Position numbers and translations under genes: made by a program
Part shown: positions 8,281-37,333 of the stretch, in pieces
How the letters are laid out: every line of letters begins with the position of its first letter
Numbering within the stretch: the stretch's first letter is position 1
Assembly (NCBI GenBank): GCA_041753515.1
Contig: JBGSUE010000056.1
Location: forward strand, 1 to 62,060
DNA length: 62,060 bases
Direction of reading: 5' to 3'
Source of the DNA: Patescibacteria group bacterium
GTDB taxonomy: Bacteria; Patescibacteriota; Microgenomatia; UBA10105; UBA927
The notes under the pieces: model-generated
The model's database searches: none
What the model was told of the DNA's origin: nothing
Seen by the model: the letters and a program-made list of their open reading frames with translations, nothing else

Positions 8281-8296
8281 AGTACCTCCTTATCTT

Positions 8297-8361
8297 GTCA
8301 TGCTGAACTTGTTTCAGCATCACGTTAATACAAACTAGATCCCGAAACAAGTTCGGGATGA

Positions 8362-8362
<1 letters not shown>
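8297..8362. repeat. REP-like palindrome doublet, family B (GTCATsCyGAA-n4-TTTCrGsATC), empty copy
   Basis: GTCATGCTGAACTTGTTTCAGCATC, 16-nt spacer, then GATCCCGAAACAAGTTCGGGATGAC, directly after the gyrB stop. Confidence 0.88.
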
Positions 8363-10320
<1,958 letters not shown>

Positions 10321-10985: not shown

Positions 10986-11024
10986 ACCCTTGCATTATAC
11001 ACGGCAAATCTTCATAATAGAATT
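10986..11024. promoter_or_regulatory. Overlapping divergent sigma70-type promoters for leaderless pilB and holB
   Basis: + strand TTGCAT(10990)-17 bp-CATAAT(11013) then 6 nt to ATG 11025; - strand TATAAT 8 nt before the holB ATG. Confidence 0.6.
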
Positions 11025-12746: not shown

Positions 12747-12755
12747 AGGAGGACT

Positions 12756-13811: not shown

Positions 13812-13812
13812 T

Positions 13813-15024: not shown

Positions 15025-15050
15025 TTTATGCGGAATGGAGGTGAAAACGA

Positions 15051-15551: not shown

Positions 15552-15570
15552 TTGAATAAGTTCAGTATAA

Positions 15571-15600
15571 TAAACACGCCGGAGAAATCTGGCGTGTTTA
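15571..15600 (+). terminator. Stable hairpin after the major pilin
   Basis: TAAACACGCCGGA-GAAA-TCTGGCGTGTTTA (13-bp stem, GNRA loop), ending 3 nt before the next ATG. Confidence 0.65.
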
Positions 15601-15603
15601 GGT

Positions 15604-17568
15604 ATGAAGAAACTATTTATTTTTATTGTTCTGGCATCTTTTTCTTTTTTTCTTCTGTTTCAGGTTACGCATATTCCGGCAGGTGATTCCGGTGATCTGG
15701 CAACAGCGGCAGCTGTCTGGGGTGTCGCCCACCCGCCCGGATTTCCCCTCTATACATTTCTTTCAGCAATTCTCGCTGATATTCCAATTCAAACGGTTGC
15801 CTGGCGGGTGTCTCTCATGTCTTCAATCCCTTCCGCTCTGTCTCTTGGATTTATTTTTTTCATCGTGTACCGCATCACGAAAAACCGTATCGCTGCCTTC
15901 ATACCGGTTTTATTTGCACTGGGGAATTATCCATTACTCACTTTCTCGATAATTCCAGAGGTGTTCGGACTTGCAACGCTTTTCTCAGTGTTGATCATAT
16001 ACACCATGATGCTCTGGTATCAGACTCATAATGAGCGATGGTTTGTACTGTCATGTGTGTTTTTGGTTTTTGGCGTCACACATCATCCAATTCTGATTCT
16101 CTTTATGCCGGCATGTATGGTATTTACCTATGTACATAAAAATTTGCTTCAGACGCATAGTATAAAAAAAGCTGCAGCTTGGTCGGTTTTCGGATTTTTG
16201 CCGTATCTGTATGTTCCCCTTGCGGCAATCAGAGAGCCTATTATCAATTGGGAGCATGCGGTAAACATAAAGAACTTTATTACACTGATATCCCGCGCAC
16301 GGTACGGCACTTTCCAATCAGCAGTCTCAATCGGAAATACTATGTTTGAACGGTTACTGAATATTAAGGCATATGGAAATCTTGTTTTGGAAGATTTTCA
16401 GGTGATAGGGATACTTCTTATACTTTTCGGTTTTTATTGGCTGTGGAGTAAAACAAGAGACTTATTCTGGTTTTTTTTCGCAGCGTTTCTGACAACAGGA
16501 CCATTGTATTTTTTTTACGCCAGTTATCGGCTTACAAACAGATTCGTATTAGGGACAATCGAAAAATTTCTGCTCTCGTCATACGTAGTGCTTTTTATTC
16601 TTGCCGGTGTCGGTTTGTATCAAATCATCATTTTTTTTGCGCGTCGTAAGATACTGCGCGGTATTCTAATTGTTGCAGTCTGCATTCAGACAGGAATATT
16701 GATCTCCTCTAATGTCTATCGTTTTTGGGGTATTGCGGATGATACGACAGCTGAAATTCTTGCAGCTGATATTCTCGATTCACTCCCCAAACATGCCATT
16801 TATTTTGTCTCCGGCGATACCCAACTTTTTACTTCGTGGTACATGCGCTACGCAATCGGATACAGACCAGATATTTATCTTATTTATTCCGGATCGATGG
16901 CAGAACCCGATTATTTCCGGACCATAGAGCACAACTTTCCGGAATTAAAGATTCCTTCGTATGACAGTGAAACGATGGTTCTTGATTTTATGAATGCAAA
17001 TATAACGGATCATGAGATATATGCGTATACCGAGCTTTTAAAACCGGACGGGTATTCATGGGTTCCGTACGGGCTTATGTACAAATTATATAAAGACACG
17101 GATTTGCCTACGTATGAAAAAATACTTGAGGATAATAATACATTGTGGTCCCGATATCGTTATAAAGAAGCGTCGTCTGGCATACTTTTACGGTACAACC
17201 ATCTGTTGCTTGCCGATGTTAAAAGCACATACAGCGGTGCCAGTCTTGATTTTGCCAAACTGTTTGTCGAATCCGGTTTTCCAAATGAGATGGTACCCTA
17301 TCTTGATCGGGTGATATCATTGGGCAATGACCTTGATGTGCCTGTGGCGTTCAAGTATCTCGGAATTGTATATCTGAACAAGGGCGACTGTCAGAAAGCC
17401 TTGGATAATTTTTCAAAATCTGAATCGTCAGCGTATGTTCCAGACTATACGATTTTGCAGCTGAAAGCCGTCACCTATAAAAATTGTCTGAAAGATGATG
17501 AAAAAGCTGAAATGTTATTTAAGCAGTACGAACACGAAAAAGCCAAATACGAAATCCCGCTAGAATAA
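15604..17568 (+). CDS. DUF2723/TMEM260-like GT-C membrane glycosyltransferase with C-terminal TPR-like helices
   Basis: GDSGDL, GVAHPPGFPLY, EVFGL, HH motif, many TM segments, GD...Y..RPD. Confidence 0.8.
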   Translation: MKKLFIFIVLASFSFFLLFQVTHIPAGDSGDLATAAAVWGVAHPPGFPLYTFLSAILADIPIQTVAWRVSLMSSIPSALSLGFIFFIVYRITKNRIAAFIPVLFALGNYPLLTFSIIPEVFGLATLFSVLIIYTMMLWYQTHNERWFVLSCVFLVFGVTHHPILILFMPACMVFTYVHKNLLQTHSIKKAAAWSVFGFLPYLYVPLAAIREPIINWEHAVNIKNFITLISRARYGTFQSAVSIGNTMFERLLNIKAYGNLVLEDFQVIGILLILFGFYWLWSKTRDLFWFFFAAFLTTGPLYFFYASYRLTNRFVLGTIEKFLLSSYVVLFILAGVGLYQIIIFFARRKILRGILIVAVCIQTGILISSNVYRFWGIADDTTAEILAADILDSLPKHAIYFVSGDTQLFTSWYMRYAIGYRPDIYLIYSGSMAEPDYFRTIEHNFPELKIPSYDSETMVLDFMNANITDHEIYAYTELLKPDGYSWVPYGLMYKLYKDTDLPTYEKILEDNNTLWSRYRYKEASSGILLRYNHLLLADVKSTYSGASLDFAKLFVESGFPNEMVPYLDRVISLGNDLDVPVAFKYLGIVYLNKGDCQKALDNFSKSESSAYVPDYTILQLKAVTYKNCLKDDEKAEMLFKQYEHEKAKYEIPLE

Positions 17569-19660
17569 TGATGCATGCGGTGACCGCGCTGATGAGCATT
17601 CCTGTTTTAAACATTTCGGCTTTGTAGGTGAACTGTACAGTGTGAGTCCCCCCCGGAACGAAAACAGCGCGCTGTTTCATGTTGGCGGCGTAAATTTCCG
17701 ATTTTTTTCCGTTCACGGACACCGTCCACCCCGGATAATATTTATCGGTCAATACAAGCATGCCGTCCGCGGGATTATCCTTAATTTGTACAGAAATTTT
17801 TGTATTGTCACCTGACTCGGTTAGTGTTATTTCGGGTTGTGCGGAAGATGAAGCAACAGGAGGCGGTGTGTGTTCGAGAAGCACTGAAAAACCGGGGATA
17901 AATGAGTCCGATTGCATGATATTCATGGCAGATTGGACCGTTGTTGCAGTTCGTACATCATAGGCGATATATGAACGCGGGAGGGTGCCCGGTAAGCCGT
18001 AGACGTATAAATTATATGAATCATGGGAAATCAAACCTTTCAATTCAAGTGCATCAAATGAATACGGACTGATGAGTGAGCCGATTGATTGAAGTGCTGC
18101 GAGTTTGCGTGTGGTAGCGCTGGCAGTTGAGATTTGTGATTGTTCGTCATGCGTTATCGAGCCCGTAAGACTCTGGTCAAAATAGAGAGCTCTGCGGTTG
18201 TAAATACCGGATTGTTCGCTATAGTGGGCAACATCGTATACGGCATTCGTATTCGGAAAAAGCGTATTTCGGGTGAAATAGAGATGATTGATAAGCCTGT
18301 CACCCTGATTTTGTCTGATATCTTCATACTGTTTTTCAACGGCAAACGTCATAATTCTTTCTCCGGAATTGAGGTATTTGAATATGTCCGGTTTTTCCAG
18401 CCATTCTTTTGCATTATAGAGTACGTGATATCCGTTCCAGGTATAAAATACATGGATCGTGTTGATAATAAGTAGTATCCATAAAAGTGGAGATTTGGTT
18501 TTTTTCCAGACGGAATCAAAACCGCGGGCAGACAAAACGAGAAGTATGAGTGTGAATATCCATAAAAACCGTGATGGGCTGCGGAATACGTTAAACGGCC
18601 ATATGGAATACATAAGATACGTCGGTGAATTGTTTCCGAGCATGAGAAGAAAGGACAATCCCAATGATAGCAATAGAAATATATCTGATCGTGAAAATTT
18701 TCTATTTTTCAATGACCAAAGTTCAACAAGAAGAAGTATGAGAGGTATCCAACCGAAAAATGAGGCATTTTCCCAGAAAAATACTCCATTGCCTGCTAAT
18801 TCCTGCGAGTAGGTTCCATTTACAGGATTGCCAAAATAAAACGGATTGATAAACGTAATGAAATTGGAAAGTGTATATGCGTAACGGCCGGCTGTTCCCG
18901 AATCAAATCCGCTGTTGACGATGGACTGGCCATAATATTCCTGAGACGGGAGAAGTTGGAATGCCGATAGGAGAAACGCTGAGGCAATACAGATAAAATA
19001 TATGATTCTTGGTTTGATCAATAAAGCATACAGCGCAGAAAAAATAAGTGTAATAAATACAGCCTGAGGGAATGTCGTCAGGATCTGCTGCCACAACAAA
19101 AAAATAAACAGAAGCACGTTTTTATATTCGGATTTATCTGACAGACGTTTGGTAGCCCAGAATATCCATGGGATGAGACTCAGACCCGGAATAACCATGA
19201 TGTGTTCAAGGCGCGGGATTGTGATACCGGATATAGATAGTGCAAGACCGGCCATAAGAGCTGCAGGAATACCTATTTTCATACTGCGAAGCCAAATGTA
19301 CAATCCAATACCGAATAATGAAAGTGAAAAAACGATAAACAGATTATAAGCAATAGCGAAATTGAAGAATCTGAAGAGAATAAGGTTTGGCAGATAAAAA
19401 AATCCGATTGCATCAGCATAGAGTGGATGACCGGTACCGATGAGAGATGTCCAGAATGGTATCCGGTTTTCTTGAAGAGCTTCCCACATGACGTATTTGA
19501 TTGAAATGCTTCTGTGCCATGAATCGCTTGCTCCGTAGTCAGGTGTGATAATCAGCTTCGGTTCCGGATAGAAATAGTGGAAAAAATAAACGGATACATA
19601 CAACACAATACAGAAAATAGAGATAAGATCATATTTCCATTTGCCTATCCGTGACGCCAT
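17519..19660 (-). CDS. YfhO-family GT-C membrane protein
   Basis: IPFW...GHPLYAD, FRSPSRF, C-terminal LVLTDKYYPGW...AN...RAVFVPGGTH. Confidence 0.82.
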   Translation of the reverse strand: MASRIGKWKYDLISIFCIVLYVSVYFFHYFYPEPKLIITPDYGASDSWHRSISIKYVMWEALQENRIPFWTSLIGTGHPLYADAIGFFYLPNLILFRFFNFAIAYNLFIVFSLSLFGIGLYIWLRSMKIGIPAALMAGLALSISGITIPRLEHIMVIPGLSLIPWIFWATKRLSDKSEYKNVLLFIFLLWQQILTTFPQAVFITLIFSALYALLIKPRIIYFICIASAFLLSAFQLLPSQEYYGQSIVNSGFDSGTAGRYAYTLSNFITFINPFYFGNPVNGTYSQELAGNGVFFWENASFFGWIPLILLLVELWSLKNRKFSRSDIFLLLSLGLSFLLMLGNNSPTYLMYSIWPFNVFRSPSRFLWIFTLILLVLSARGFDSVWKKTKSPLLWILLIINTIHVFYTWNGYHVLYNAKEWLEKPDIFKYLNSGERIMTFAVEKQYEDIRQNQGDRLINHLYFTRNTLFPNTNAVYDVAHYSEQSGIYNRRALYFDQSLTGSITHDEQSQISTASATTRKLAALQSIGSLISPYSFDALELKGLISHDSYNLYVYGLPGTLPRSYIAYDVRTATTVQSAMNIMQSDSFIPGFSVLLEHTPPPVASSSAQPEITLTESGDNTKISVQIKDNPADGMLVLTDKYYPGWTVSVNGKKSEIYAANMKQRAVFVPGGTHTVQFTYKAEMFKTGMLISAVTACIIILAGFRIWLFRVRTA

Positions 19661-19683
19661 ATACCGTAGTATACTAAAATTAT
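19661..19683. promoter_or_regulatory. Palindromic bidirectional -10 element (AGTATACT) for two leaderless genes
   Basis: TATACT on both strands within 19668-19675, 8 nt before the pilD ATG and 7 nt before the yfhO-like ATG. Confidence 0.6.
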
Positions 19684-20394
19684 ATGCTTCTGTATCTGTT
19701 TATTCTGGGTATATGTATCGGATCATTTTTGAATGTGGTTATTGACCGGTTGCCGGAGGGTAAAAAGTTAAACGGCAGGTCGAAGTGCGACCACTGCAGA
19801 CGGACACTGACGCCGTTTGAACTTATTCCCATCGTTTCATGGATTCTCCAGCGCGGGAAAAGCAGGTGCTGCGGCAGGAAACTGTCTGTTCAGTACCCTC
19901 TTATAGAATTAGCAACGGGTATCGGATTCGTGTTTACGTATATGCATTTCCAGTCGTTTTTATGGCTTGGGATTTTTTCAGTACTTTTAGCTATCGCCGT
20001 CATCGACCTTAAAACCCAGCTTATTCCTGATATTCTTGTCTATATTCTGGGCGGATTGGCTCTTTTTGCACTCCCCTTCCCTCCCCCTATTCTGCCTGCG
20101 CTTGGAAGCTGGGCATTCCTTTATGTTATATGGTTTATAACGCGCGGCCGCGGCATGGGATATGGGGACGTCAAACTCGTCTTTGTTTTAGGACTTCTTG
20201 CGGGATATCCGGGAGTCATCATACTTTTTTACACTGCTTTCTTGACTGGGGCATTAGTGGGTGTCATACTGATATTAGGAAAGTATTCGGGCTTGAAAAG
20301 TAAAATACCGTTCGGTCCGTTTCTGATTCTCGGAATTGTCATAAGCATTCTGTATCAGAATCGGATTATGGATTGGTGGAAAGGGCTATTATGA
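19684..20394 (+). CDS. pilD: Prepilin peptidase (A24)
   Basis: GSFLNVVIDRLP, RSKCDHC, GMGYGDVKL, IPFGPFL. Confidence 0.93.
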   Translation: MLLYLFILGICIGSFLNVVIDRLPEGKKLNGRSKCDHCRRTLTPFELIPIVSWILQRGKSRCCGRKLSVQYPLIELATGIGFVFTYMHFQSFLWLGIFSVLLAIAVIDLKTQLIPDILVYILGGLALFALPFPPPILPALGSWAFLYVIWFITRGRGMGYGDVKLVFVLGLLAGYPGVIILFYTAFLTGALVGVILILGKYSGLKSKIPFGPFLILGIVISILYQNRIMDWWKGLL

Positions 20395-20801
20395 AAAAAG
20401 GCTTTACACTTCTGGAACTGTTGGTCGTTATTGCTGTAGCCGCAATTCTTGTGTCGATTGCCAGCGCGTCGTATACGAGCGCGCAGAAGAAAGCACGCGA
20501 TGCCCGGCGCTCCAGTGACATGCATGCGGTCCAAAACGCCGCCGAACAATACTATGCGGATAATGTATTTTATCCTCCCAATGAAACTTTCGGTGCTGCA
20601 TATCTTCCGGCCGGTTTTCCGTCTGAACCAAAAACCGGATGGGATGCGTATGTATATACACCAATTGGAGTTGCTCCTCATGCAGGATATTACGCGTGTG
20701 CGAAATTAGAAAGTCCTAAAGGTAATGCAACTGCCTCAGACGGAACAGGATTTGGAACAACAACGACTGGAACACATTATTGCGTGAAAAATTTACAATG
20801 A
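20391..20801 (+). CDS. Type IV pilin / GspG-like pseudopilin
   Basis: KKG|FTLLELLVV, ARDARR.SD. Confidence 0.88.
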   Translation: MKKGFTLLELLVVIAVAAILVSIASASYTSAQKKARDARRSSDMHAVQNAAEQYYADNVFYPPNETFGAAYLPAGFPSEPKTGWDAYVYTPIGVAPHAGYYACAKLESPKGNATASDGTGFGTTTTGTHYCVKNLQ

Positions 20802-21205
20802 AAAAAGGTTTTACTTTAATTGAATTGCTGGTAGTCGGGACGATTTTGGCAGTATTGGCTGCAGGGGCGTTTGTGTCGTACTCCACGACCACTGCCCGGT
20901 CGCGGGACAGCAAGCGGCTAAGCGACATCGAACAGGTCCGTTCAGCCCTTGAAATGTTCAGAGCGGATAATGCGAGTTATTATCAGGCAACAGGATCAGT
21001 TGTGTCTACATTGGGGATCCTCTCTCCTGATTATATATCCAAGTTGCCATCCGATCCGAAATTCGCTTCTACATTTGATTATTATTATAATTCTGCCGCG
21101 CCAGCTGCAACATATGAGCTCTGTGCAAAAACGGAAAATCTCACCGATCCCGGAACATGTACGTGTTCAGATGCTAATTATAACTACTGTACGAAGAATC
21201 CATGA
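20798..21205 (+). CDS. Type IV pilin / GspG-like pseudopilin
   Basis: KKG|FTLIELLVV, SRDSKRLSD, LPSDP. Confidence 0.88.
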   Translation: MKKGFTLIELLVVGTILAVLAAGAFVSYSTTTARSRDSKRLSDIEQVRSALEMFRADNASYYQATGSVVSTLGILSPDYISKLPSDPKFASTFDYYYNSAAPAATYELCAKTENLTDPGTCTCSDANYNYCTKNP

Positions 21206-21208
21206 TGT

Positions 21209-21688
21209 ATGTATGAGAAAATTCAAAAAGGATATACTCTCATCGAACTTCTGGTTGTGGCAGGAATCATAGCCTCCACTATCGGATTTACTATAGCTGG
21301 CTACGGTGCGTTCAATAAATCCCAAAAAGTCAGGCAGGCGGCACTTACGGTGAAAAACAACCTGCGTCTTGCCCAGTCCAAAGCCATCAGCGCCCAGAAC
21401 CCGGGTATTGCCGGATGCGACGATCTTGTGGGGTATGAAGCATACCGGACAAGCGATACCACCTATGCCATCCGGGTTGTGTGCAATACTGCCTCCCCGA
21501 TCACTACTGCAGATGTGAATTCGTTTACTCTTCAGGAAGGAGTCGAATTTACCGGAAACTGGTCTCTTATTTTTTATCCACTTACCAGCGGTGTAGATGC
21601 GGCAGAAGTAATCGGTTTAGAGTTGCCTGGTACAACGTATACAGGAAGCGTAACAGTTGAAATGAGCGGCGATATGAAAGTGACCTAG
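21209..21688 (+). CDS. Minor pilin (FimT/GspH-like)
   Basis: KG|YTLIELLVV; LRLAQSKA. Confidence 0.82.
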   Translation: MYEKIQKGYTLIELLVVAGIIASTIGFTIAGYGAFNKSQKVRQAALTVKNNLRLAQSKAISAQNPGIAGCDDLVGYEAYRTSDTTYAIRVVCNTASPITTADVNSFTLQEGVEFTGNWSLIFYPLTSGVDAAEVIGLELPGTTYTGSVTVEMSGDMKVT

Positions 21689-21689
21689 T

Positions 21690-22103
21690 ATGAATAAAGG
21701 ACAGACATTGATCGAAGCGATTATTGCCACGCTAGTCGTTATTCTATTGGCAACCGGACTCATATCCGGTACGACTGCGGCCTTGAAAGCTAGCCAGAGT
21801 GCCCGCTACCGGGCACTGGGTACCAAAATGGCGCAGGAAGGAATTGAGATCGTGAGAAATAAGCGCGATGAAGGATGGAACGGATTTATCAGCCATTATG
21901 TGTTGACGGATGCAGTACCGAAAACAGCAACAGAAAATATCACAATTACAGAGGGATCACTGACATTTCAATTTACGCGGGATATCACACTTACCTACAC
22001 AAGCGGCAACCAGACAACGACGGTATTTGTTGATGTGACATGGTCAGAAGGATCAGCCACACGGCACGCAAAAGCAGAAACGATTTTAACGAATTGGAGA
22101 TAA
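21690..22103 (+). CDS. Minor pilin (PilV-like)
   Basis: KG|QTLIE; AQEGIEIVR; VDVTW. Confidence 0.78.
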   Translation: MNKGQTLIEAIIATLVVILLATGLISGTTAALKASQSARYRALGTKMAQEGIEIVRNKRDEGWNGFISHYVLTDAVPKTATENITITEGSLTFQFTRDITLTYTSGNQTTTVFVDVTWSEGSATRHAKAETILTNWR

Positions 22104-22104
22104 G

Positions 22105-22641
22105 ATGAAACGCGGTTTTACTATTATTGAAGTATTGGTAACCATTGTCATTGTGGCAATGCTTGGAATAGTTATCGTGCAGTCGTTTATAACGACGATT
22201 ACAACGAGCACAAAAACGGAGCTTATTAAGGATGTTAAACAGAGCGGTGATTATGTTCTGGAAATGATATCCCGTCGGGTACGTAATGCCGATACGCTTG
22301 ACTGTACAACCGCCAATGAGATACGTACAGTAAACCAGGACAATTCCCAATCACGGTTTTACAGTATTCTGAATAGCGGAGTCTGTAGAATTGCCGAAGA
22401 GTATACGGATCCTGTTGGTGCAGTGACTACTAATTATCTGAGCGCGGACAATCTGACGGCGGGTGATGTTTCCGGTTGCAGTACATATTTGTCTGTTTCA
22501 TGCACAATGATCGCAAGCCAATACGCAAAAGCCGCTGTTTCTTTTTCCCTTCAGCAGAAGCCGGCGGCGGGACTTAAACTGTATGAACAGGCGGCGCAGA
22601 AATTCGAGACAACGATCAGCTTGAGGAATGTCGTGTATTAA
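22105..22641 (+). CDS. Minor pilin (PilW-like)
   Basis: RG|FTIIEVLV; RRVRNA; C-terminal TISLRN. Confidence 0.8.
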   Translation: MKRGFTIIEVLVTIVIVAMLGIVIVQSFITTITTSTKTELIKDVKQSGDYVLEMISRRVRNADTLDCTTANEIRTVNQDNSQSRFYSILNSGVCRIAEEYTDPVGAVTTNYLSADNLTAGDVSGCSTYLSVSCTMIASQYAKAAVSFSLQQKPAAGLKLYEQAAQKFETTISLRNVVY

Positions 22642-22655
22642 TCTAAAATATATAT

Positions 22656-22690
22656 AATTACGAATTATGAATTACGAATTACGAATTTCG
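22656..22690 (+). repeat. Heptamer tandem repeat (AATTACG)x5
   Basis: aattacg aattatg aattacg aattacg aatttcg; spans the PilX-like start and encodes MNYELRI. Confidence 0.8.
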
Positions 22691-23497
22691 AGTACACATC
22701 AGTCTGGACAAATATTGCTCATCACGCTGTTAGTATTGTCCGTGGCGCTTACGGTAGCCCTTTCGGTTATCGGTAGGACAACGACGGATGTGTCCATAAG
22801 CAGCCAGATCGAGGAATCCAATAGGGCATTTTCGGCTGCAGAGGCCGGAATTGAGGAAGCTCTCCGTTTGGGAGCCGCTCCCGGTGGAACACTTATGCTT
22901 TCACAAAGCAATACGACAGCAGACGTCACTGCAACGACAGTCGGGACAACCGATACATATGATGCAGGTGTTGCGCAGGTGGGTGAAGCCAAAACCATCT
23001 GGCTTATCCCCCATGATCCGGTAACAGGAGATCCTGTTTATGCCGGGCCGGGATACGGTCCGTCACGCACTATCACCGTCTGCTGGAGTAACTCTGCAGC
23101 ACTGGAAATCACCGTGTATTATGAAAAAAGCGGAAGTATAGGCATTGCGAAATCCGGATATGACCCGACAGGATCTGCTATCGGGTATACCGCAGCATCT
23201 GCCAACATCGGAGATATATGTGGCGAAGGAACGCAGCTCACTGATTATTTTACTACAATCGATTTTTCATCATATGCACCGGACACCCTCTATATGATGA
23301 GGATCCGGCCCAAGTACAGCCAGTCGCTGATACGTTTGAAAGCCCAGGATCCTCTGCCGGGTCTTGGGAATGAATTCACGTCGTGCGGATCGTCTGTACC
23401 GGGAGTCACGCGGTGTATTAAAGCATACCAGTTATACCCGGAACCTCCCGATCTTTTTGATTATGTGCTATATTCAAATACCGGTCCTATTCAATAA
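22667..23497 (+). CDS. PilX-like minor pilin
   Basis: SG|QILLITLL (no E5), RAFSAAEAGIEEAL. Confidence 0.78.
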   Translation: MNYELRISSTHQSGQILLITLLVLSVALTVALSVIGRTTTDVSISSQIEESNRAFSAAEAGIEEALRLGAAPGGTLMLSQSNTTADVTATTVGTTDTYDAGVAQVGEAKTIWLIPHDPVTGDPVYAGPGYGPSRTITVCWSNSAALEITVYYEKSGSIGIAKSGYDPTGSAIGYTAASANIGDICGEGTQLTDYFTTIDFSSYAPDTLYMMRIRPKYSQSLIRLKAQDPLPGLGNEFTSCGSSVPGVTRCIKAYQLYPEPPDLFDYVLYSNTGPIQ

Positions 23498-23511
23498 TTT
23501 TATGCCTGCCT

Positions 23512-24531
23512 ATGATTACTAAAATCGGTGTTGACATCGGATCACATTCCATAAAACTTGTTGAGCTAGCACATGAAAAAGACAGCGTCCGGTTGATTGC
23601 GGCTGGTGCCATCGCCACACCGCCAAAATCTCTTAATTCCCAGATTGATGCCGACCAGAAAGCCCTTGCCAATGCCATAAAACAACTTGTGAAGCAGACA
23701 ATGGCCAGAAGCCGCGATGTGATTATATCCCTGCCCGAATCGCAGGTGTTTACGCGTGTTATCGAGGTTCCCCAATTGTCTCAACGAGAATTGGCAAGCG
23801 CCATACGCTGGGAAGCCGAGCAGTATGTCCCACTTCCATTGGATCAGGTGAATCTAGATTTTTCAATATTACGGGATTCAAAAGTTACCTCAAGCGGAAA
23901 AATGGATGTCCTGTTGGTTGCAAGCCCGAAAACACTCGTTGAGAAATACGTTGCACTTATGGAAAACGCGGATTTGAATCCTATTGCTGCCGAAACGGAA
24001 ATCATTGCGATATCCCGTTCGCTCGTTCGCACAACGGCAATGGTGAAAAATGTCATGATTGTGTCACTGGGCGCACAAACAACGGATCTTGCTATCGTAC
24101 GGGAAGGAATTCTTGCCTTCACCCGTTCCATTTCTACAGGCGGTGAGGCATTGTCCCGCGCACTCATACAAGGATTGGAATTTAATCCCATGCAGGCTGA
24201 ACAGTTCAAACAGACGTACGGGCTTGAAAAAGACAAGCTTGAGGGAAAAATTGTGGCAGCCGTCCGACCGATTATGGATACCATTGTCAGCGAGATGACA
24301 CGGGCAATTGCCTATTTTCAGGAAAAATATACCACTGACCGCGTGGAGGTTATTCTCATCTGCGGTGGTACTGCAAAATTGCCCGGAATGGTAAGCTATA
24401 TTGCCGAATCAACCGGAGTAGAAACACAACTGGGCAATCCGTGGCTTGGTATCAAATATGAACAGCGTTTTACCGTATTGGAACCTGAAGGAGCAACATT
24501 TGCAGTGGCGATCGGTTTAGCTTTAAGGTGA
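23512..24531 (+). CDS. pilM: Type IV pilus assembly protein PilM
   Basis: GVDIGSHSIK, EAEQYVP, GG.AKLPG, NPW, AIGLALR. Confidence 0.92.
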   Translation: MITKIGVDIGSHSIKLVELAHEKDSVRLIAAGAIATPPKSLNSQIDADQKALANAIKQLVKQTMARSRDVIISLPESQVFTRVIEVPQLSQRELASAIRWEAEQYVPLPLDQVNLDFSILRDSKVTSSGKMDVLLVASPKTLVEKYVALMENADLNPIAAETEIIAISRSLVRTTAMVKNVMIVSLGAQTTDLAIVREGILAFTRSISTGGEALSRALIQGLEFNPMQAEQFKQTYGLEKDKLEGKIVAAVRPIMDTIVSEMTRAIAYFQEKYTTDRVEVILICGGTAKLPGMVSYIAESTGVETQLGNPWLGIKYEQRFTVLEPEGATFAVAIGLALR

Positions 24532-24536
24532 CGTGT

Positions 24537-25085
24537 ATGAATCCATCATCAAATATCAATCTTATCAAATCGGATACCCAGAATCTGGAAAGCTTAATAC
24601 CGATTCAGAATCTCTACCGTAATTTCAGTATCATAGTTTTGTTTATTGTCGTCGTTGCCGGACTTCTGACAATTTCAGGATATATCATCTTCGGTATCAG
24701 AGGGCAGGCGCTTGTAAATCAGAAGTCATCACTTCTTACCCGTCTGGAAGCGCAAAAAACGAAAGAAACACTGTTTTTGGCGGCTCGCAGCAGACTGAAA
24801 ATTGTGAAAGAAGTGCTCGATACATCCCGCAAAAAATCTGTATTCCTTACGAATGCCCAATCTGTTGCAGACGCTCCGGTGTTGGGAACGGTCACGGAAG
24901 ATGTTTCCGGAAGAGTATCCATGACATACAAGGTGTTGTCAATTGAAGATGCTATAGGACTTAATGACAGGATACTTGATCTGTATGAAGCAGGGATGAT
25001 AGACGACGTGAATCTGCTTGGCCTCAGCATCAGCCAGGACTATTCGATATCATTGTCGTATGATTATAAACCTGTCTGGAAATAA
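24537..25085 (+). CDS. PilN-like alignment protein
   Basis: INLI motif, single TM, position after pilM. Confidence 0.65.
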   Translation: MNPSSNINLIKSDTQNLESLIPIQNLYRNFSIIVLFIVVVAGLLTISGYIIFGIRGQALVNQKSSLLTRLEAQKTKETLFLAARSRLKIVKEVLDTSRKKSVFLTNAQSVADAPVLGTVTEDVSGRVSMTYKVLSIEDAIGLNDRILDLYEAGMIDDVNLLGLSISQDYSISLSYDYKPVWK

Positions 25086-25088
25086 ACT

Positions 25089-25826
25089 ATGACATTTCGG
25101 AAATTTTTACGGATGTACAATAAATTTGTCCTTCCGACAGTTATTCTTGTTATATGTATCATTGCTGTATTTTCAGGTATCGTCCCTGCTGTCAGATCGA
25201 TTCAGAATCAGTATATTGAGCAGGATGCTCTCAATAAGGAAATCGCTGTCATCCGTAAAAAAGTTCAAACTCTGGAAGCACTTGATGAGAACACATTGCG
25301 GCGTCAGGTTATTGATCTGATGACTGCTGTACCGCCATCGAAACAATTACCGTCGGTATTTTCAACACTGGATAGTGTGGCGCTTCAGTCCGGTGTCACT
25401 GTTGATTCCATGTCGATGGGTAGCAGCGGCAATATCGCGTCGGATTCCTCATCTGCTGCTTCATCACTTTCGCGCAGTACCAGCGGTCTTTTGGATATCG
25501 AAATGAGCGTCAATGGTACGAGTGATCAGGCGAAGCAATTTCTGGATACCCTTGCAGACGTCAGGCGTTTTGTGCGGGTTAATTCATTTTCTGCAGGGTA
25601 TGGTGAGGATGGATTGGTGAAAATGGGATTGTTATTGGATGCGTTTTATGCTCCGTATCCAAAAACACTCGGGAAATCTGGTGATCTTCTTGAGCCGTTC
25701 ACCGCAAACGAAGAAGTGTTATTATCGCAAGTAGCGCGGATGCCTCTTATCAGTCAGGAGCTTGCGCAGTATGAGAGTTTGCCGCCGGTAGAATACGGAA
25801 ACAAAGCCGACCCGTTTTCGTACTGA
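25089..25826 (+). CDS. PilO-like alignment protein
   Basis: TM plus coiled coil, ferredoxin-like region (FLDTL..VRR), C-terminal DPF. Confidence 0.7.
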   Translation: MTFRKFLRMYNKFVLPTVILVICIIAVFSGIVPAVRSIQNQYIEQDALNKEIAVIRKKVQTLEALDENTLRRQVIDLMTAVPPSKQLPSVFSTLDSVALQSGVTVDSMSMGSSGNIASDSSSAASSLSRSTSGLLDIEMSVNGTSDQAKQFLDTLADVRRFVRVNSFSAGYGEDGLVKMGLLLDAFYAPYPKTLGKSGDLLEPFTANEEVLLSQVARMPLISQELAQYESLPPVEYGNKADPFSY

Positions 25827-28366: not shown

Positions 28367-30412
28367 TTATTCCTGTATGATCCGTATTTTACCTGAATAT
28401 ACGGCATCTCTCAAGTGGGGATATTCATGCATGGATCCGTCAATACCCACAACGCGCATAGCTGCCTCTTTCGTCTCCCCAAGCATTGTTTTATCCGTAA
28501 AATCAGCAAAACGGAGATTCGGTAAACCGTGCTGTTTTGTACCCAAAAAATCGCCGGGTCCTCTCATTGCCAAATCAAGTTCCGCAAGATCAGGTCCGCT
28601 GAAAATAGTCTCTAGCGATTTTAAGCGCCTGAGAGTCTCGGTGTTGGAATTTTCGGAAAACAATAGACAATATGCCTGTTGGTTCCTTCGTCCTACCCTT
28701 CCTCTCAGCTGGTGAAGCTGTGACAGACCGAATCTGTCTGCATCTTCGATGAGGATGATAGATGCATTGGGAATATCGATGCCGACCTCGACAACCGGAG
28801 TGGTGACAAGGATATCGGACGATCCTCCGGCAAATGCGGAAAGGACGTCCGTTTTTTTCTTTTCGCTCATGGATCCGTATAGAAGTGACACAGAGTATTT
28901 TGAAAATACAGTTTCTTTCAGACGTGTATATTCATTTTTTACCGATTTGACGGAATTTTCTTCACCATCACCTCCTTCAACTAAAGGGCATACGATAAAA
29001 ACCTGTGTTTTCTTTTCATCGATGTGACCGGAAATCCACTTGTAAGCGGCTTCACGTTTGGATGACGGCACAACCCAGGTTTTTACCTGTTTTCGCCCGG
29101 TAGGCAATTCTCTAATCACCGATACGTCAAGACTGTCCCAGACTGTGAGCGCAATAGTGCGTGGAATAGGTGTGGCTGTCATGGTAAGAATATGCGGTAC
29201 TGCAGATCCACGGCTTTTTTCTTTTAGTTTTGAACGTTGTGCCACACCAAAGCGCTGCTGTTCATCAACAACGATGAGTCCGACGTTGTCGTAGACCCTT
29301 GAATCGGATAAGAGCGCATGCGTTCCCACTATAATCTGCGGTTTTTCCGTGGAAAGTCCTTTTTCACCTTTTGCCGTAATAAGCGTTATACCGATACCCA
29401 AAGGCGTAAATAATTGTGTGAGAGATTCGAAGTGTTGTTGAGCAAGTATTTGTGTTGGAGCCATAAGGAGGCTTGTGTATCCTGACTGTGCCGCGATATG
29501 CATGGCGACTGCTGCAACAATCGTTTTTCCGGCCCCAACGTCGCCGATCAAGAGTCTGTTCATCGGATACGGTTTTTCTAAATCGTCAGTAATTTCTTCA
29601 ATAGCGAGTTTCTGGTCACACGTGAGGGTGAACGGTAGACGGGCAATAAAAGATTCTGTTATGTGTCGGCGTGTTGCCATCCTGCAGGAATTCGTGATGT
29701 TCCTCCATTGGATTTTTGAAGACTGTATAATGAGCTGGAGTGCAAATAGTTCTGCAAACGAAAGTCTTTTACGTGAAGCGGATATGTCTTCGTGCTTGTC
29801 GGGAAAATGAATTTTAGACAGTGCGGCAGTAATGGAGAGCAATGCGTACTTCTTCCGTATGTCATCAGGTATAATATCCTCTCCGAGATCAAGATGAAGA
29901 TTGAGAAGATAATCCATCCTGCCCCGCAGCCATTTGGATGTGACGCCTTGGGTTTCATGGTACACGGGAACCAGACGACCCATATGCAAAGACTGTGAGT
30001 CTGACTGGCCAGTTTCAAACTCAGGATTCACCAGAACGGTTTTTTTCCCAAAAAAAGATAATGCGCCTGCCATAGCTACATGGGTGCCTTTAGGGAGTAT
30101 GGAGAGAAGATATGGCTGATGGAAAAATATTGCTTCAATTGAACCCGTATCGTCCGCTATGCGGACAAGCTGCATTTTTTTGCCGGTTTTGGTTGCGACA
30201 CTCGCAATTGAAGTGACCGTCCCTTGGACGGTAACGGTTTGTCCGGCCCGTGTATCTTTCATGGCCACCATTTTGCGGAAATCATTGTATCTGTGGGGCG
30301 TATGGTAGAGAAGGTCTGAAACTGTATGTATACCCAGGCGTTCAAGGCGTTTAGCCATTGCAGGACCTACTTTTGGCACGTATTGTACCGGACTGTCTAT
30401 TGTCAGTTCCAT
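28367..30412 (-). CDS. recG: ATP-dependent DNA helicase RecG
   Basis: MNRLLIGDVGAGKT, DEQQRFGV, MTATPIPRT, RFGLSQLHQLRGRVGR. Confidence 0.95.
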   Translation of the reverse strand: MELTIDSPVQYVPKVGPAMAKRLERLGIHTVSDLLYHTPHRYNDFRKMVAMKDTRAGQTVTVQGTVTSIASVATKTGKKMQLVRIADDTGSIEAIFFHQPYLLSILPKGTHVAMAGALSFFGKKTVLVNPEFETGQSDSQSLHMGRLVPVYHETQGVTSKWLRGRMDYLLNLHLDLGEDIIPDDIRKKYALLSITAALSKIHFPDKHEDISASRKRLSFAELFALQLIIQSSKIQWRNITNSCRMATRRHITESFIARLPFTLTCDQKLAIEEITDDLEKPYPMNRLLIGDVGAGKTIVAAVAMHIAAQSGYTSLLMAPTQILAQQHFESLTQLFTPLGIGITLITAKGEKGLSTEKPQIIVGTHALLSDSRVYDNVGLIVVDEQQRFGVAQRSKLKEKSRGSAVPHILTMTATPIPRTIALTVWDSLDVSVIRELPTGRKQVKTWVVPSSKREAAYKWISGHIDEKKTQVFIVCPLVEGGDGEENSVKSVKNEYTRLKETVFSKYSVSLLYGSMSEKKKTDVLSAFAGGSSDILVTTPVVEVGIDIPNASIILIEDADRFGLSQLHQLRGRVGRRNQQAYCLLFSENSNTETLRRLKSLETIFSGPDLAELDLAMRGPGDFLGTKQHGLPNLRFADFTDKTMLGETKEAAMRVVGIDGSMHEYPHLRDAVYSGKIRIIQE

Positions 30413-30419
30413 GAAAAGT

Positions 30420-30527
30420 CTAGAGCCCTCCGTATAAAAGCGGCATCAGGGATGAAAGGATGAGAGCAAGCGATGCGATGACCACAATCACTTTCCAGAA
30501 TTTCTCATGTTTCCGAAAAAAGTTCAT
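30420..30527 (-). CDS. 35-aa single-TM small protein (not in ORF track)
   Basis: MNFFRKHEKFWKVIVVIASLALILSSLMPLLYGGL*; basic N-terminus plus hydrophobic helix; stop 7 nt before the recG ATG. Confidence 0.6.
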   Translation of the reverse strand: MNFFRKHEKFWKVIVVIASLALILSSLMPLLYGGL

Positions 30528-30538
30528 AGTATTTTTTT

Positions 30539-30582
30539 GTCATCCCGACTTGTTGCCGTCATCCCGAACTTGTTTCGGGATC
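30539..30582. repeat. Family B REP-like units (one partial, one full) at the 3' side of the nuclease gene
   Basis: gtcatcccgacttgtt (30539) and GTCATCCCGAACTTGTTTCGGGATC (30558-30582). Confidence 0.85.
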
Positions 30583-30587
30583 TAGTT

Positions 30588-30872
30588 TTATAAAATATAT
30601 TCCTTGTACAAATCCTTCATACAGGGATTTGTTGATCGTATTAAATTAATTTTCCATTCTCTATGCCAATTCTTTAATTGTTTTTCTCGTTTTATTGCAT
30701 CTATAGCCCTATCATATTCTTCAAAATACACAAGTTCATGAATATTATACTTTTTTGTAAAACTGTCTACAATATGATTTTTATGTTGATACGTGCGTTT
30801 TATAAGATCATGCGTCATGCCTGTATAAAATACAGTTCGGGTTTTATTGGATAATATGTATGTATAAAACAT
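30588..30872 (-). CDS. Small GIY-YIG nuclease (YhbQ/Slx1-like, ~94 aa)
   Basis: FYTYIL...FYTGMT.DL.KR..QH...FTKKY...LVYFE...AIKREKQLK.W.REWK..LI...NP; visibly AT-rich. Confidence 0.9.
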   Translation of the reverse strand: MFYTYILSNKTRTVFYTGMTHDLIKRTYQHKNHIVDSFTKKYNIHELVYFEEYDRAIDAIKREKQLKNWHREWKINLIRSTNPCMKDLYKEYIL

Positions 30873-30885
30873 ACAAAAGAAACCA

Positions 30886-31044
30886 GATGCTGAAACCTGC
30901 CTGCCGGCAGGCACGCGAGTTCAGCATGACTGTCCTTGTCATCCCGAACTTATTTCGGGATCACGTTCAAATTACTGTCATGCCGAATTTATTTCGGCAT
31001 CTCGTTTATATTCAAACTTGATGCTGAAACGAGTTCAGCATGAC
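30886..31044. repeat. Cluster of four family B REP-like units; the first carries a nested CCTGCCTGCCGGCAGGCACG
   Basis: Units at 30886-30930 (reverse, +20 bp insert at 30896-30915), 30938-30962, 30977-31001 and 31020-31044 (reverse). Confidence 0.88.
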
Positions 31045-31047
31045 GGA

Positions 31048-32247
31048 CTATTCAATAATTCTTTTTGCTTTTTTCCCAACCTTGAGTATATCACCAGCTT
31101 TAATTTTCAGTGCTTTGTTGCCAGATATAATTATCTCATTCAGTTTGACTGCATTTTGAGATAGCAAACGTTTTGCTTCAGAATTACTTTCAGCCATTCC
31201 CGCCTTTACAATTTGTGTATTTACATTTGGTTCATTTACCATCGTTGACAACCTGAGTGTTGGTACTTCCACAGTGACATCAATGACCCCATGTTGAAAC
31301 CGTTTTTCAAAATTTTCCTGTGCTTTTTTGGCGGAGGGTTCGTCGTTGAGCCAGGCGGTGAGCTCATATGCCAGCCGCTTTTTGAATGTCATCGGGTTCT
31401 CCCCCTTCTCCATCTTCTCATGCATCTCGGCTATCTCATTAATCATCTTATCTGTCAGAAGAGTAAAGCATGGAATAATGGCATCATCCCCAAGAGCCAT
31501 GATCTTACCGTAAAAATCGGACGGTTCATCGGTGAGCCCGATGACATTACCTTCCGTTTTTCCGATTTTTGTGCCTTTAGCATCAGTAAGCAGCGGAACT
31601 GTCATGACAAATTTTTCTTTTCCGAGCATTGCTTTCACAAGAGATCTTCCTGCAAGCATATTAAATGTCTGATCAGTACCTCCCATTTCCAGGTCAACTT
31701 TCATGACGACCGAATCGTACCCCTGCAAAAGCGGATAAATAAACTCCCTCAGGTTAATTGAATCTCCTGCTTTCATTCGTACCTGATACATATCACGTTC
31801 TATCAATTGTTGTACAGAAAAATGCTGAGCAATAACCAATATGTCCTCCAGTTTTAATTTTGTGAGCCAATCTCCGTTATATCTGATTTCGATTGGATTA
31901 TCGCCATCGAATCTTACTATTTTTGATGCTTGTTTGAGATATGAAACAGCATTATTGCGAAGTTCCTGACGGCTCATGAATGTGCCCCGTGCTTTCATTT
32001 TGCCCGAAGGATCTCCGGCTAGCCCTGTCCCGTCACCGACCAGAAATATAACATGGTGGCCAAGATCCTGCCATTGACGAAGTTTTCGAAAACCGACAGC
32101 ATGACCAATATGAAGTTGTGACCCCGTCGGATCAAAGCCCTGGTACAGGGTCAGTTTTTTCCCGCTTCTCAATACTTTTTCCAGTGCATCACGGCTGGGA
32201 TAAATCGTATCCACTCCACGGGTGAGAAGTGTTTCAATCGGATCCAT
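31048..32247 (-). CDS. tyrS: Tyrosine--tRNA ligase
   Basis: GFDPTG..LHIGH, YPLLQGYD, GGTDQ.FN, KIGKT, C-terminal S4 domain. Confidence 0.96.
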   Translation of the reverse strand: MDPIETLLTRGVDTIYPSRDALEKVLRSGKKLTLYQGFDPTGSQLHIGHAVGFRKLRQWQDLGHHVIFLVGDGTGLAGDPSGKMKARGTFMSRQELRNNAVSYLKQASKIVRFDGDNPIEIRYNGDWLTKLKLEDILVIAQHFSVQQLIERDMYQVRMKAGDSINLREFIYPLLQGYDSVVMKVDLEMGGTDQTFNMLAGRSLVKAMLGKEKFVMTVPLLTDAKGTKIGKTEGNVIGLTDEPSDFYGKIMALGDDAIIPCFTLLTDKMINEIAEMHEKMEKGENPMTFKKRLAYELTAWLNDEPSAKKAQENFEKRFQHGVIDVTVEVPTLRLSTMVNEPNVNTQIVKAGMAESNSEAKRLLSQNAVKLNEIIISGNKALKIKAGDILKVGKKAKRIIE

Positions 32248-35369: not shown

Positions 35370-37256
35370 TTACACGTTTTTAAGTGTCACTGAGAATTTT
35401 TCTCGTACGGCATCCAGGATTTTTTGTCGTACTTTACGGATTACATCGTCTGAGAGGTTTTTTGTCGTGTCCAGATACTCTATGCGGATTGTACGAAAAT
35501 TTTGGTAGGCATCGAGAAATGTTACGCGGTAAATCAGCGGATGGAGTGTCTTGACCGTGTCCATGAGGGGGCCGATCCTGAAATCTCCGGTAACTTCAAA
35601 CGATAAGTCCTCAATAGCCGGCGGATACTTCGGGATCGGGGTGTAAGCTTTCCGGGGTTGGGCCAATTCAACCATTTTGGCAAAATCCAGATATAAAACA
35701 GTAATATCTGAGGACACCTCTAGGGTTCCGAAGTCGGGCAGATTATACTTTATTCCAAAAAGATCAAATAGCGCCTCGGCCAAACCTTTTGCTTCCAAAA
35801 ATCGATTACCTGACCATACAACAATAAGGTGAAGAGTTTCCTTGGGCAGATCATTGTGTTTATGCACATAGACATGTGACAGTTCAAATACTTTGAGATC
35901 CTTGGTATTTTTCAGATTTTCATGCACGACCGGCAAAACGGACTGTTTGAGAGAGGTCCGCATATACACCCAGTCTGATGATAATGGATTTAAAATTTTA
36001 TACGCGGATCCTTCATTCTGAGCAATCATTGAATACGTAAGCAGTTCGGTGTATCCCCAATCACGCAGCCTGATTTTGATGTTTTCTTCCCACATGAGCA
36101 TCGGATCGATGGGGGTATTGGGCGGTGCACTTGCTGGAAGTGCTGATTGTATAGTGTGGTACCCGTAGATTCTGGCAATTTCTTCGATGATGTCCACATC
36201 GATCGCCACATCATCCCTCCAGCTTGGTACACGAACTTCAACACGCTCCTCTCTCATGCGTACTGTGAATCCAAGAGATTCAAGAGGTGTGGTGATGTCC
36301 GTATCTTTTATTGGCCCAATATACGCCAGTATTTTGTTTTTGGATACGACGACGGTACGCGTCTTTTTGCGTTCCGGATAGATATCCGTTACCGGTCCTG
36401 CAACCCGGCCGCCTGCGGCGCTGCCCATCATTCTCATGCCGATTGAAAATACAGGAAGTACCAGCTCTGTATCCAATCCTTTCTCAAATAATGTTGCGGC
36501 TTCAGTTCGCTGAGCGAGCGCCATTGACGTACGTCTGATACTTACGGGGTTATATGTCTGTAAAAAAAGAATGACACGTTTTGAATTGTTGGTGACGGAT
36601 GAATTTTCCCCACCCATAATGCCGCAGAGATCAATGAGAGTTCCGGTTTTGTCTTCAATAACAATATCGCCCCCCGGAAGTGTGTGTTTCTTTCCGTCAA
36701 GTGTTGTCAATATTTCCCCCTTTTTTGATGCCCGCAAGGTCATCGTGTGACCTGAAATTTTATCGTAATCGAAAACATGTGCCGGCTGGCCGTATGCGTG
36801 CATGAGATAGTTCGTGATATCAACAACATTGCTGATTGTGCGCAGTCCCGATAGTTCGAGATATTTCTGGATTTTTTTGTCCGATGGGCCAACTTTTACA
36901 CCGTCAAATACGACGGATGTCCAGCGCGGGTTAAGGGTGGGATCTGTTTTAAGGAAAAGCGGTAAAGTATCCGGAATGTTGGGAAATATTGGTTTTAGAA
37001 TATACGGATCATTGATAAACTGAGCTTTAAAACCGAACCGGGGTAAGATTGCGACGGATTCACGGGCAATGCCCGAAACGGACATGGCATCCGGCCTGTT
37101 TCCCGTGATCTCGATATCATAAACTGTAGTATTCCCTTTGCCATGAACGCGTTCAATGGACGGGCCGCATAAAGATAGACACCGGGCAATATCAGATGGT
37201 TTGGCATCTGTTTTCAAAAATTCACGAAGCCACATGTCAGGTATTAAGATGTTCAT
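35370..37256 (-). CDS. pheT: Phenylalanine--tRNA ligase beta subunit (lacks B2 tRNA-binding OB domain)
   Basis: IEITGNRPDAMS..GIARE, VDITNY, PSWRDD...DIIEEIARIYGY, C-terminal FDX-ACB. Confidence 0.92.
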   Translation of the reverse strand: MNILIPDMWLREFLKTDAKPSDIARCLSLCGPSIERVHGKGNTTVYDIEITGNRPDAMSVSGIARESVAILPRFGFKAQFINDPYILKPIFPNIPDTLPLFLKTDPTLNPRWTSVVFDGVKVGPSDKKIQKYLELSGLRTISNVVDITNYLMHAYGQPAHVFDYDKISGHTMTLRASKKGEILTTLDGKKHTLPGGDIVIEDKTGTLIDLCGIMGGENSSVTNNSKRVILFLQTYNPVSIRRTSMALAQRTEAATLFEKGLDTELVLPVFSIGMRMMGSAAGGRVAGPVTDIYPERKKTRTVVVSKNKILAYIGPIKDTDITTPLESLGFTVRMREERVEVRVPSWRDDVAIDVDIIEEIARIYGYHTIQSALPASAPPNTPIDPMLMWEENIKIRLRDWGYTELLTYSMIAQNEGSAYKILNPLSSDWVYMRTSLKQSVLPVVHENLKNTKDLKVFELSHVYVHKHNDLPKETLHLIVVWSGNRFLEAKGLAEALFDLFGIKYNLPDFGTLEVSSDITVLYLDFAKMVELAQPRKAYTPIPKYPPAIEDLSFEVTGDFRIGPLMDTVKTLHPLIYRVTFLDAYQNFRTIRIEYLDTTKNLSDDVIRKVRQKILDAVREKFSVTLKNV

Positions 37257-37264
37257 ATTAGTAT

Positions 37265-37328
37265 GTCATCCCGAATTTATTTCGGGATCTATTTCTTTAA
37301 CGAGATGCCGAAACGAGTTCGGCATGAC
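37265..37328. repeat. Family B REP-like doublet, empty copy, between pheS and pheT
   Basis: GTCATCCCGAATTTATTTCGGGATC, 14-nt spacer, then GATGCCGAAACGAGTTCGGCATGAC. Confidence 0.88.
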
Positions 37329-37333
37329 GCGGG

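Follow-up and report, generated by a model that had tools for sequence, protein, structure and literature searches.

A probable Ssn-family module in a Patescibacteria genome: a GIY-YIG nuclease gene bracketed by GTC-tagged hairpin repeats

The locus described here, a small GIY-YIG nuclease gene bracketed by hairpin repeats that carry a GTC tag, lies in one 62,060-nt stretch of the genome of a Patescibacteria group bacterium (contig JBGSUE010000056.1; the whole stretch is hereafter the window), and its closest described relatives are the Ssn nucleases. In the report by Chenal et al. (Nat Commun 2025, PMC11893778), SsnA is described as a 94-aa single-domain GIY-YIG protein (CDD cd10448) that is encoded beside hairpins and belongs to a family classed as separate from Slx1. 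The Neisseria meningitidis enzyme binds its hairpin with nanomolar affinity and only in single-stranded DNA, cutting a few nucleotides 5' of the tag and leaving the complementary strand, double-stranded DNA, and RNA uncut. Cutting is abolished by the substitutions Y6A, Y17A, and E64A, and activity is likewise abolished when the palindrome is changed with the hairpin kept; three further Ssn homologs behave like the N. meningitidis enzyme. SsnA lowers transformation of N. meningitidis by repeat-carrying DNA. The tagged hairpin repeats, named "Ssn-related motifs" in that work, occur at least once at 71% of ssn homolog loci and on both sides at 42%, and an ssn homolog is present in 137 of the 169 genomes whose motifs number more than 200. 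A search of the available literature found no follow-up to this report.

Tagged hairpins of this general kind had been defined earlier, as the CGTC-tagged repetitive extragenic palindromes (REPs) of Di Nocera, De Gregorio, and Rocco (BMC Genomics 2013, PMC3733652). As characterized in that paper, these have a tag that is sometimes TGTC, a stem of 8–9 bp starting with AT, and a loop of 4–5 nt; they occur chiefly as inverted dimers in five phyla, including Bacteroidetes and Thermotogae, and take in the Neisseria dRS3 repeats and some Rickettsia palindromic elements. There, no tyrosine transposase gene was reported to be flanked by CGTC repeats, which were said to "seem lacking a dedicated transposase."

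Comparison of the window with these systems indicates that the locus is very probably an Ssn-family module, in which a gene for a predicted 94-aa GIY-YIG endonuclease is bracketed by CGTC/TGTC-tagged REPs as its putative cognate hairpins. Shared with the published repeat-ssnA-repeat layout are the single-domain 94-aa protein, 41% identical to a gonococcal ortholog with the catalytic Tyr/Tyr/Glu aligned, the bracketing of the gene by inverted units in which GTC forms an unpaired tag, the stem starts with AT, and a C follows the palindrome, and the presence of more repeat copies scattered through intergenic DNA. The differences lie in the hairpin itself, with a window stem AT[G/C]C[T/C]GAA and loop CTTGT versus the published ATTCCCGCG and loop MAV; in the host, a candidate-phyla-radiation bacterium; and in abundance, as the window has nine units in 62 kb, unlike the large clusters around surface-protein genes in Neisseria. 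Because layout and activity were both published in 2025, the window is a further example in a poorly studied bacterial group, and the new kind of system proposed in a first-pass annotation of this DNA falls away. Nor is there support for the Slx1-like cutting of branched or cruciform DNA that the same annotation had envisaged, as the published Ssn enzymes act solely on single-stranded DNA, a few nucleotides 5' of the tag; its supposition that the enzyme family recognizes hairpins, by contrast, agrees with what is reported for Ssn (PMC11893778).

The recG-tyrS spacer in which the gene lies is 635 nt long (recG, 28367–30412, and tyrS, 31048–32247, both on the minus strand), and its sole sizeable open reading frame (ORF) is that at 30588–30872 on the minus strand, with its ATG start codon at 30872–30870. 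The translated protein matches the Pfam GIY-YIG family (PF01541; E 4.6e-13, residues 1–76) and no other Pfam domain; no NCBIfam family was matched, nor any solved structure in a sequence search at E 0.01. The GC content of the gene region is ~0.31, versus 0.43–0.48 in recG and tyrS. The earlier description of an AT-rich gene of ~94 aa enclosed by a forward and a reverse unit is borne out. In a 23-sequence alignment, 25 columns are invariant and all are present in the window protein, among them an unbroken REKQLKNWH followed by a WK pair, and residues Y5, Y16, and E63 are invariant in all 23 sequences. The stored protein-collection version of the gene is only 76 aa long, beginning at an internal methionine (residue 19) and lacking the first two catalytic tyrosines; this gene call looks truncated because relatives are 94–102 aa long.

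Assignment to the Ssn family rests on a direct comparison with Neisseria. A tblastn search of a plasmid collection with the window protein found two N. gonorrhoeae records at 41% identity (E 3e-18); these records (NZ_CP119140.1 and NZ_CP119142.1) are filed as plasmids and are, at 2.17 Mb each, chromosomes by size. The gonococcal locus contains a 94-aa ORF with Y6, Y17, and E64 and, within 3.27 kb, 16 copies of the NTS consensus at no more than two mismatches. By BLASTP the window protein and this ORF align without gaps over 90 aa at 41% identity (E 4e-28), with Y5, Y16, and E63 falling on Y6, Y17, and E64, the residues mutated in the N. meningitidis enzyme. Both E-values lie below the 1e-10 used by Chenal et al. 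to define Ssn homology. In addition, one homolog locus from Hydrogenovibrio (L080), whose protein is 53% identical to that of the window, has Neisseria-like NTS units beside the gene and so forms a bridge between the two hairpin types.

Several observations weigh against this assignment and must be set beside it. The gonococcal ORF is unannotated in its record, and its identification as ssnA draws on length, residues, and the NTS copies around it. The degenerate string published for Ssn-related motifs, run here as GTCA-starting versions with the leading H dropped, in three lengths, and with W fixed to A, matches none of the nine window units and gives only six matches in four of 80 homolog loci, so that the window hairpin is a subtype not captured by that string, which is a search device and not a definition of the family. 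Further complicating the picture, three stem variants occur alongside a single ssn-type gene in the window, where the N. meningitidis enzyme lost activity upon a change of palindrome.

The hairpin units themselves can be recognized with little ambiguity. A search pattern of the form GTCATNCNGAA-N(2-30)-TTCNGNAT, in which stem positions 3 and 5 are left free, has nine matches in the 62,060 nt against 0.01 expected, a number reached in none of 100 shuffles. The matches (8297+, 8339-, 30558+, 30887- with a length of 44 nt, 30938+, 30977+, 31021-, 37265+, and 37305-) fall at three intergenic sites, five between recG and tyrS, two between gyrB and ppa, and two between pheS and pheT. A typical unit is ~34 nt long: a single base precedes the GTC tag, an 8-bp stem closes a loop of 5 nt, and ~8 nt of tail follow. 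GTC is present in all nine, preceded by C or T in seven and by A in two; the stem starts with AT in all nine and reads AT[G/C]C[T/C]GAA; and the loop is 5 nt long in eight and 25 nt in one. By DNA folding every window unit is more stable than shuffled sequence (z -3.8 to -6.0).

A covariance model built from 28 units, eight from the window and 20 from relatives, recovers exactly the same nine when run unfiltered over the whole window. Eight score 46–52 bits, all of them belonging to the set from which the model was built, and the long-loop unit scores 18 bits; reverse-strand echoes of the nine aside, the next-best candidates reach at most 10.5 bits. Stem positions 3 and 5 vary in a compensatory manner (CG/GC and UA/CG) and pairing is complete in 28 of the 28 units, values that none of 500 shuffles attained, so that the covariation of stems behind a fixed GTC, noted in the first-pass annotation, stands. 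The loop also varies, as loop bases 1 and 4 (unit positions 13 and 16) change together, mostly C..G, with T..A in six of 28 units and one C..A exception; as these bases cannot pair within a 5-nt loop, the pattern points to two lineages or to a non-pairing contact.

The positions of the units and the gene are collected in Table 1. In the long-loop unit upstream of the gene, the 25-nt loop encloses a nested 16-nt palindrome at 30898–30913, and the unit as a whole folds at -14.5 kcal/mol (z -3.8). The downstream unit begins its hairpin 5 nt past the stop codon, which its tail overlaps. Additional copies of the gene-flanking repeat make up the three gene-less doublets and the single unit, and each doublet adjoins a stop codon: one unit, ending at 8363, overlaps the gyrB stop (8362–8364), the doublet next to tyrS ends 2 nt from its stop, and that between pheS and pheT lies 4 nt from the pheS stop and 7 nt from the pheT ATG. 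The recurrence of a forward/reverse architecture beside stop codons is therefore as the first-pass annotation had it. Its list of units holds for the enclosing pair and the three doublets, but left out the single unit at 30938–30962, and the length of a unit is now ~34 nt; the "14-18-nt spacers" it assigned to the doublets are not separate spacers at all, being the abutting tails of two units. The resemblance of these spacers to remnants of the gene is due to each unit's own tail, and an origin as gene remnants was ruled out.

Table 1. Coordinates of the ssn-type gene and the hairpin units in the 62,060-nt window
Feature	Position	Strand	Remarks
ssn-type gene, single-domain GIY-YIG nuclease, apparently intact	30588..30872	-	94 aa by translation; Pfam PF01541
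Hairpin unit upstream of gene, forward in gene orientation	30885..30931	-	ends 13 nt before ATG; 18.2 bits, E 0.01
Hairpin unit downstream of gene, reverse in gene orientation	30557..30590	+	51.9 bits; fold z -4.6
Truncated unit, tag + 5' arm only	30539..30556	+	1 mismatch
Single hairpin unit	30937..30970	+	pattern match; 49.1 bits
Gene-less doublet, forward 30976-31009 + reverse 31012-31045	30976..31045	.	pattern + covariance model; one long hairpin, z -6.0
Gene-less doublet between gyrB stop and ppa start	8296..8363	.	pattern + covariance model; fold z -5.9
Gene-less doublet between pheS stop and pheT start	37264..37329	.	pattern + covariance model; fold z -4.9

In geometry these units correspond to the CGTC REPs, and to their CGTC-2 type in particular, with a C/TGTC tag, an 8-bp AT-first stem, and a 5-nt loop, a correspondence judged by geometry only. 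As in the 2013 description (PMC3733652), most copies are inverted dimers downstream of ORFs, represented in the window by the three doublets and the pair around the gene. The 2013 paper found no associated enzyme, whereas here an ssn gene lies inside a dimer; the window units also show no clear sign of the CCA given there as the tail consensus.

A location at gene ends, together with terminator-like scores for two of the units, might suggest that the hairpins act only locally, as regulators or terminators for the nuclease gene and nearby operons, and are not substrates of the enzyme. The terminator-like matches are, however, on the strand opposite to the genes, one doublet sits within the pheS-pheT operon, a mere 7 nt before the pheT start, and the tag and tail are conserved across phyla, although a plain terminator would need neither. 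Together with the published enzyme's nanomolar affinity for a DNA hairpin and its indifference to RNA (PMC11893778), these points make a purely local role very unlikely. An Rfam search found nothing near threshold across 30300–31200. With so little room before the pheT start, any pheT ribosome-binding site must fall within a hairpin arm.

Comparison across relatives shows that the association of gene and hairpin extends well beyond this genome. A protein search found 350 homologs at 53–66% identity in very distant phyla, many of them on contigs of 0.5–1 kb. The sample used for counting comprised the 80 closest of 594 confirmed loci in species-representative genomes (688,376 nt in all; loci are denoted L where a label is needed), and the units found by pattern and covariance searches were counted by hand. 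These loci span candidate-phyla-radiation groups, Bacteroidota, Melainabacteria, Proteobacteria, Elusimicrobia, Nitrospirota, and others, and Gramella/Christiangramia, Sulfurovum, and Thermotogae, from which CGTC REPs are known (PMC3733652), recur among them. The strict pattern matches at 74 of the 80 loci, with 193 matches that merge into 187 units, 154 of them no more than 300 nt from the gene and 33 spread over the other ~619 kb, a density enrichment of ~60-fold. The 41 loci without a strict-pattern unit on both sides were searched again with the covariance model, whose E-values are rough. With the two methods combined, none of the 80 loci lacks a unit within 300 nt of its gene, that of L019 resting on a weak covariance match (22.7 bits). 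Units are present on both sides in 66 of 80 loci and on one side only in the other 14, one of which is on a contig that stops 11 nt past the gene. At least 48 loci share the arrangement of the window, with a forward unit upstream and a reverse unit downstream, a count that leaves out 12 strict-pattern non-canonical loci.

In flank alignments of 20 upstream and 20 downstream regions, similarity begins exactly at GTC and ends exactly at GAC. Thus, the hairpin-gene-hairpin arrangement is a conserved unit of the family across phyla, with stems that stay paired through compensatory changes, and the enrichment of homologs for flanking GTC-tagged palindromes that was anticipated for this locus proves real and general. 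The C-terminus of one homolog is a translated hairpin. Units are also found inside long ORFs of relatives, including one in L050 (3290–3313) that is read through as amino acids within a 228-aa ORF and a doublet in L023 (2853–2918) within a 522-aa ORF; these resemble the in-frame Rickettsia palindromic elements mentioned by Di Nocera et al. (PMC3733652). The widely spaced pair in L050 was considered as a sign of a second nuclease gene and ruled out, as it consists of the unit inside the 228-aa ORF and a unit past its stop.

The same enrichment bears on the view that these are ordinary REPs, spread by a RAYT (REP-associated tyrosine transposase) or another transposase elsewhere in the genome, with the nuclease gene lying by chance in a repeat-rich spacer. 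This would fit with a view of the genome limited to 62 kb, with the tendency of REP-type repeats to gather downstream of genes, and with the position of the doublets beside stops. Chance placement is nonetheless hard to reconcile with a repeat within 300 nt of the gene at 80 of 80 loci and ~60-fold enrichment; the tag is GTC and not the GTAG of RAYT-linked REPs; no Y1 transposase domain was found in the 53 window ORFs scanned; and Di Nocera et al. (PMC3733652) report no tyrosine transposase gene flanked by CGTC units. This explanation is accordingly regarded as extremely improbable. Within the 62-kb window, neither PF01797 nor any other transposase family was matched among those 53 ORFs (10 + 43, with a threshold of 1e-5 for the 43), and for that window the RAYT-independence put forward earlier holds. 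One tyrosine recombinase (485–1471) is included among the 53.

The gene is set precisely where the two tails of a doublet-like pair face each other, with 13 nt and 5 nt as the sole extra sequence, and the same genome has gene-less doublets of the same units; alternatively, then, it could be a selfish endonuclease gene that homed into doublets made by another process. Homing of this kind would need a second process making the same tagged hairpin in many phyla, and the flanking homology available to it is merely ~34 nt per side. Moreover, the published cut site lies outside the unit and not between units (PMC11893778). Although the window protein shares the GIY-YIG catalytic core of I-TevI-type homing endonucleases and of Slx1/UvrC, it is a single domain without the DNA-binding extension of homing GIY-YIG enzymes or a partner domain, no phage homologs were found (50,697 records), and the Ssn substrate is single-stranded rather than double-stranded or branched DNA (PMC11893778). 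Homing thus appears unlikely.

For an Ssn-family module, a mechanism may be proposed by extension from the four published homologs. A unit would fold into its 8-bp hairpin once the DNA is single-stranded, and the enzyme would bind this hairpin by both sequence and shape, on one strand only, and cut a few nucleotides 5' of the GTC tag, with double-stranded DNA and RNA presumably left uncut. In the cell, such cuts would be expected to hit incoming or replicating single-stranded DNA bearing the repeats and may modulate recombination or transformation, as measured in N. meningitidis, and the module may persist and pass between genomes as one unit.

Whether the module also moves itself is a separate question. 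Extending the Ssn reading, hairpin-ssn-hairpin would be a minimal, RAYT-independent, transposon-like unit whose nuclease also makes and disperses gene-less doublets, a possibility that is best treated as tentative. The layout is insertion-sequence-like, similarity stops sharply at the tags across phyla, and the ssn-type gene is AT-rich relative to its neighbours. The ~55–65% identity of homologs over very distant phyla, and their frequent occurrence on 0.5–1 kb contigs, as expected of repeats that break assemblies, point the same way. In Christiangramia, the module is at one site in two species, with flanks that align (L008 and L053); a third genome (L072) has it elsewhere, at a site unrelated to the first, and between these differing sites homology is confined to hairpin-gene-hairpin. 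No other transposase is known to be tied to the CGTC repeats (PMC3733652). The 2025 paper itself likens repeat-ssnA-repeat to an insertion sequence and proposes domestication, with mobility only hypothesised (PMC11893778). The arrangement would also be analogous to those of the REP/REPIN-RAYT and IS200/IS605 systems, where a small gene is flanked by inverted hairpins, many gene-less doublets occur, and the enzyme acts on single-stranded DNA hairpins. The enzymes differ, as a hydrolytic GIY-YIG nuclease is predicted here instead of an HUH tyrosine transposase and the tag is GTC instead of GTAG, and transposition is a feature of those systems but only hypothesised for the Ssn module.

Against mobility, neither an insertion event nor an empty site or target duplication was observed. 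DNA hydrolysis by GIY-YIG enzymes passes through no covalent intermediate. With inverted units, the published cut would occur once per strand and outside the module, and excision would not be explained by the cut itself. The shared site of L008 and L053 reflects vertical inheritance at a fixed position. Two identical copies on one Atrimonadaceae chromosome (L028 and L043) share ~65 nt upstream and ~250 nt downstream beyond the hairpins, in the manner of a segmental repeat; as a source of element boundaries these copies were rejected, since what they share continues past the hairpins into a mosaic made up of other repeats. At E 1e-10, none of 50,697 phage records yielded a homolog, and the 32 matches in the plasmid collection are nearly all to megaplasmids, chromids, or mislabelled chromosomes. 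On balance, a self-mobilising hairpin-ssn-hairpin element, with Ssn as the missing enzyme that creates and spreads CGTC REPs by a RAYT-independent hydrolytic route and with half-units as its scars, is conceivable but rather doubtful, and the spread of the repeats and of its own gene by the nuclease, as originally suggested for this locus, is here put no higher than a hypothesis.

The half-units deserve separate mention. A tag and 5' arm without the 3' arm, situated ~20 nt before a full unit, is found in the window (the truncated unit of Table 1) and at no fewer than eight loci, namely L002 (4930–4974), L021 (4932–4978), L026 (3351–3395 and 3795–3839), L063 (5444–5487), L030, L034, L044, and L046. 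Such recurrent half-units could be what remains after a cut and its repair, or after slippage. Some loops also enclose a further palindrome of unrelated sequence, as in the unit upstream of the window gene (L052, 2000–2039; L020, 3807–3853; L044, 2113–2157), and that in L044 resembles the stem of another unit. Loop extensions do not block Ssn cutting according to Chenal et al. (PMC11893778). "Long-loop" matches as a class of their own were ruled out, as they are a mix of nested palindromes and half-unit-plus-unit pairs.

Other features of the window lie outside the module. The named GyrB proteins nearest to that of the window belong to Patescibacteria, among them several Candidatus Gottesmanbacteria, at 77–83% identity, so that the genome appears to be Gottesmanbacteria-like. 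A putative 35-codon ORF, read by eye at 30420–30527 (minus strand), would encode a hydrophobic core and is situated between the recG start and the truncated unit. The pheT product (35370–37256, minus strand) is 628 aa long and aligns to the bacterial model only from model position 158 on, its N-terminal part missing. A type IV pilus cluster (10980–25826), 5 kb from the module, encodes two secretion ATPases, a platform protein, a prepilin peptidase, several pilins, and PilM/PilO.

For the family as a whole, the window adds breadth and no new principle, the system being published. It contributes a probable Ssn module in a Patescibacteria/candidate-phyla-radiation genome in which a type IV pilus cluster is likewise encoded, and a common hairpin subtype that escapes the published string; the comparison of relatives contributes the Christiangramia sites whose homology is confined to hairpin-gene-hairpin. 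As this subtype escapes detection, the published 71% and 42% association probably underestimates the true link, which in the present clade is 80/80 for at least one unit and 66/80 for both sides. The 2013 puzzle of CGTC repeats that lack a dedicated transposase is at the same time tied to a concrete candidate enzyme, and each enzyme-hairpin pair might serve as a reagent with which to cut single-stranded DNA at sites of choice. Type IV pilus machinery is of the kind that admits single-stranded DNA in naturally transformable bacteria, and since Ssn affects transformation in Neisseria, DNA uptake may matter in the pilus-encoding organism of the window as well. If mobility should prove true, the module would represent a new transposition chemistry, with RAYT-independent, REPIN-like repeats extending from candidate-phyla-radiation bacteria to Proteobacteria.

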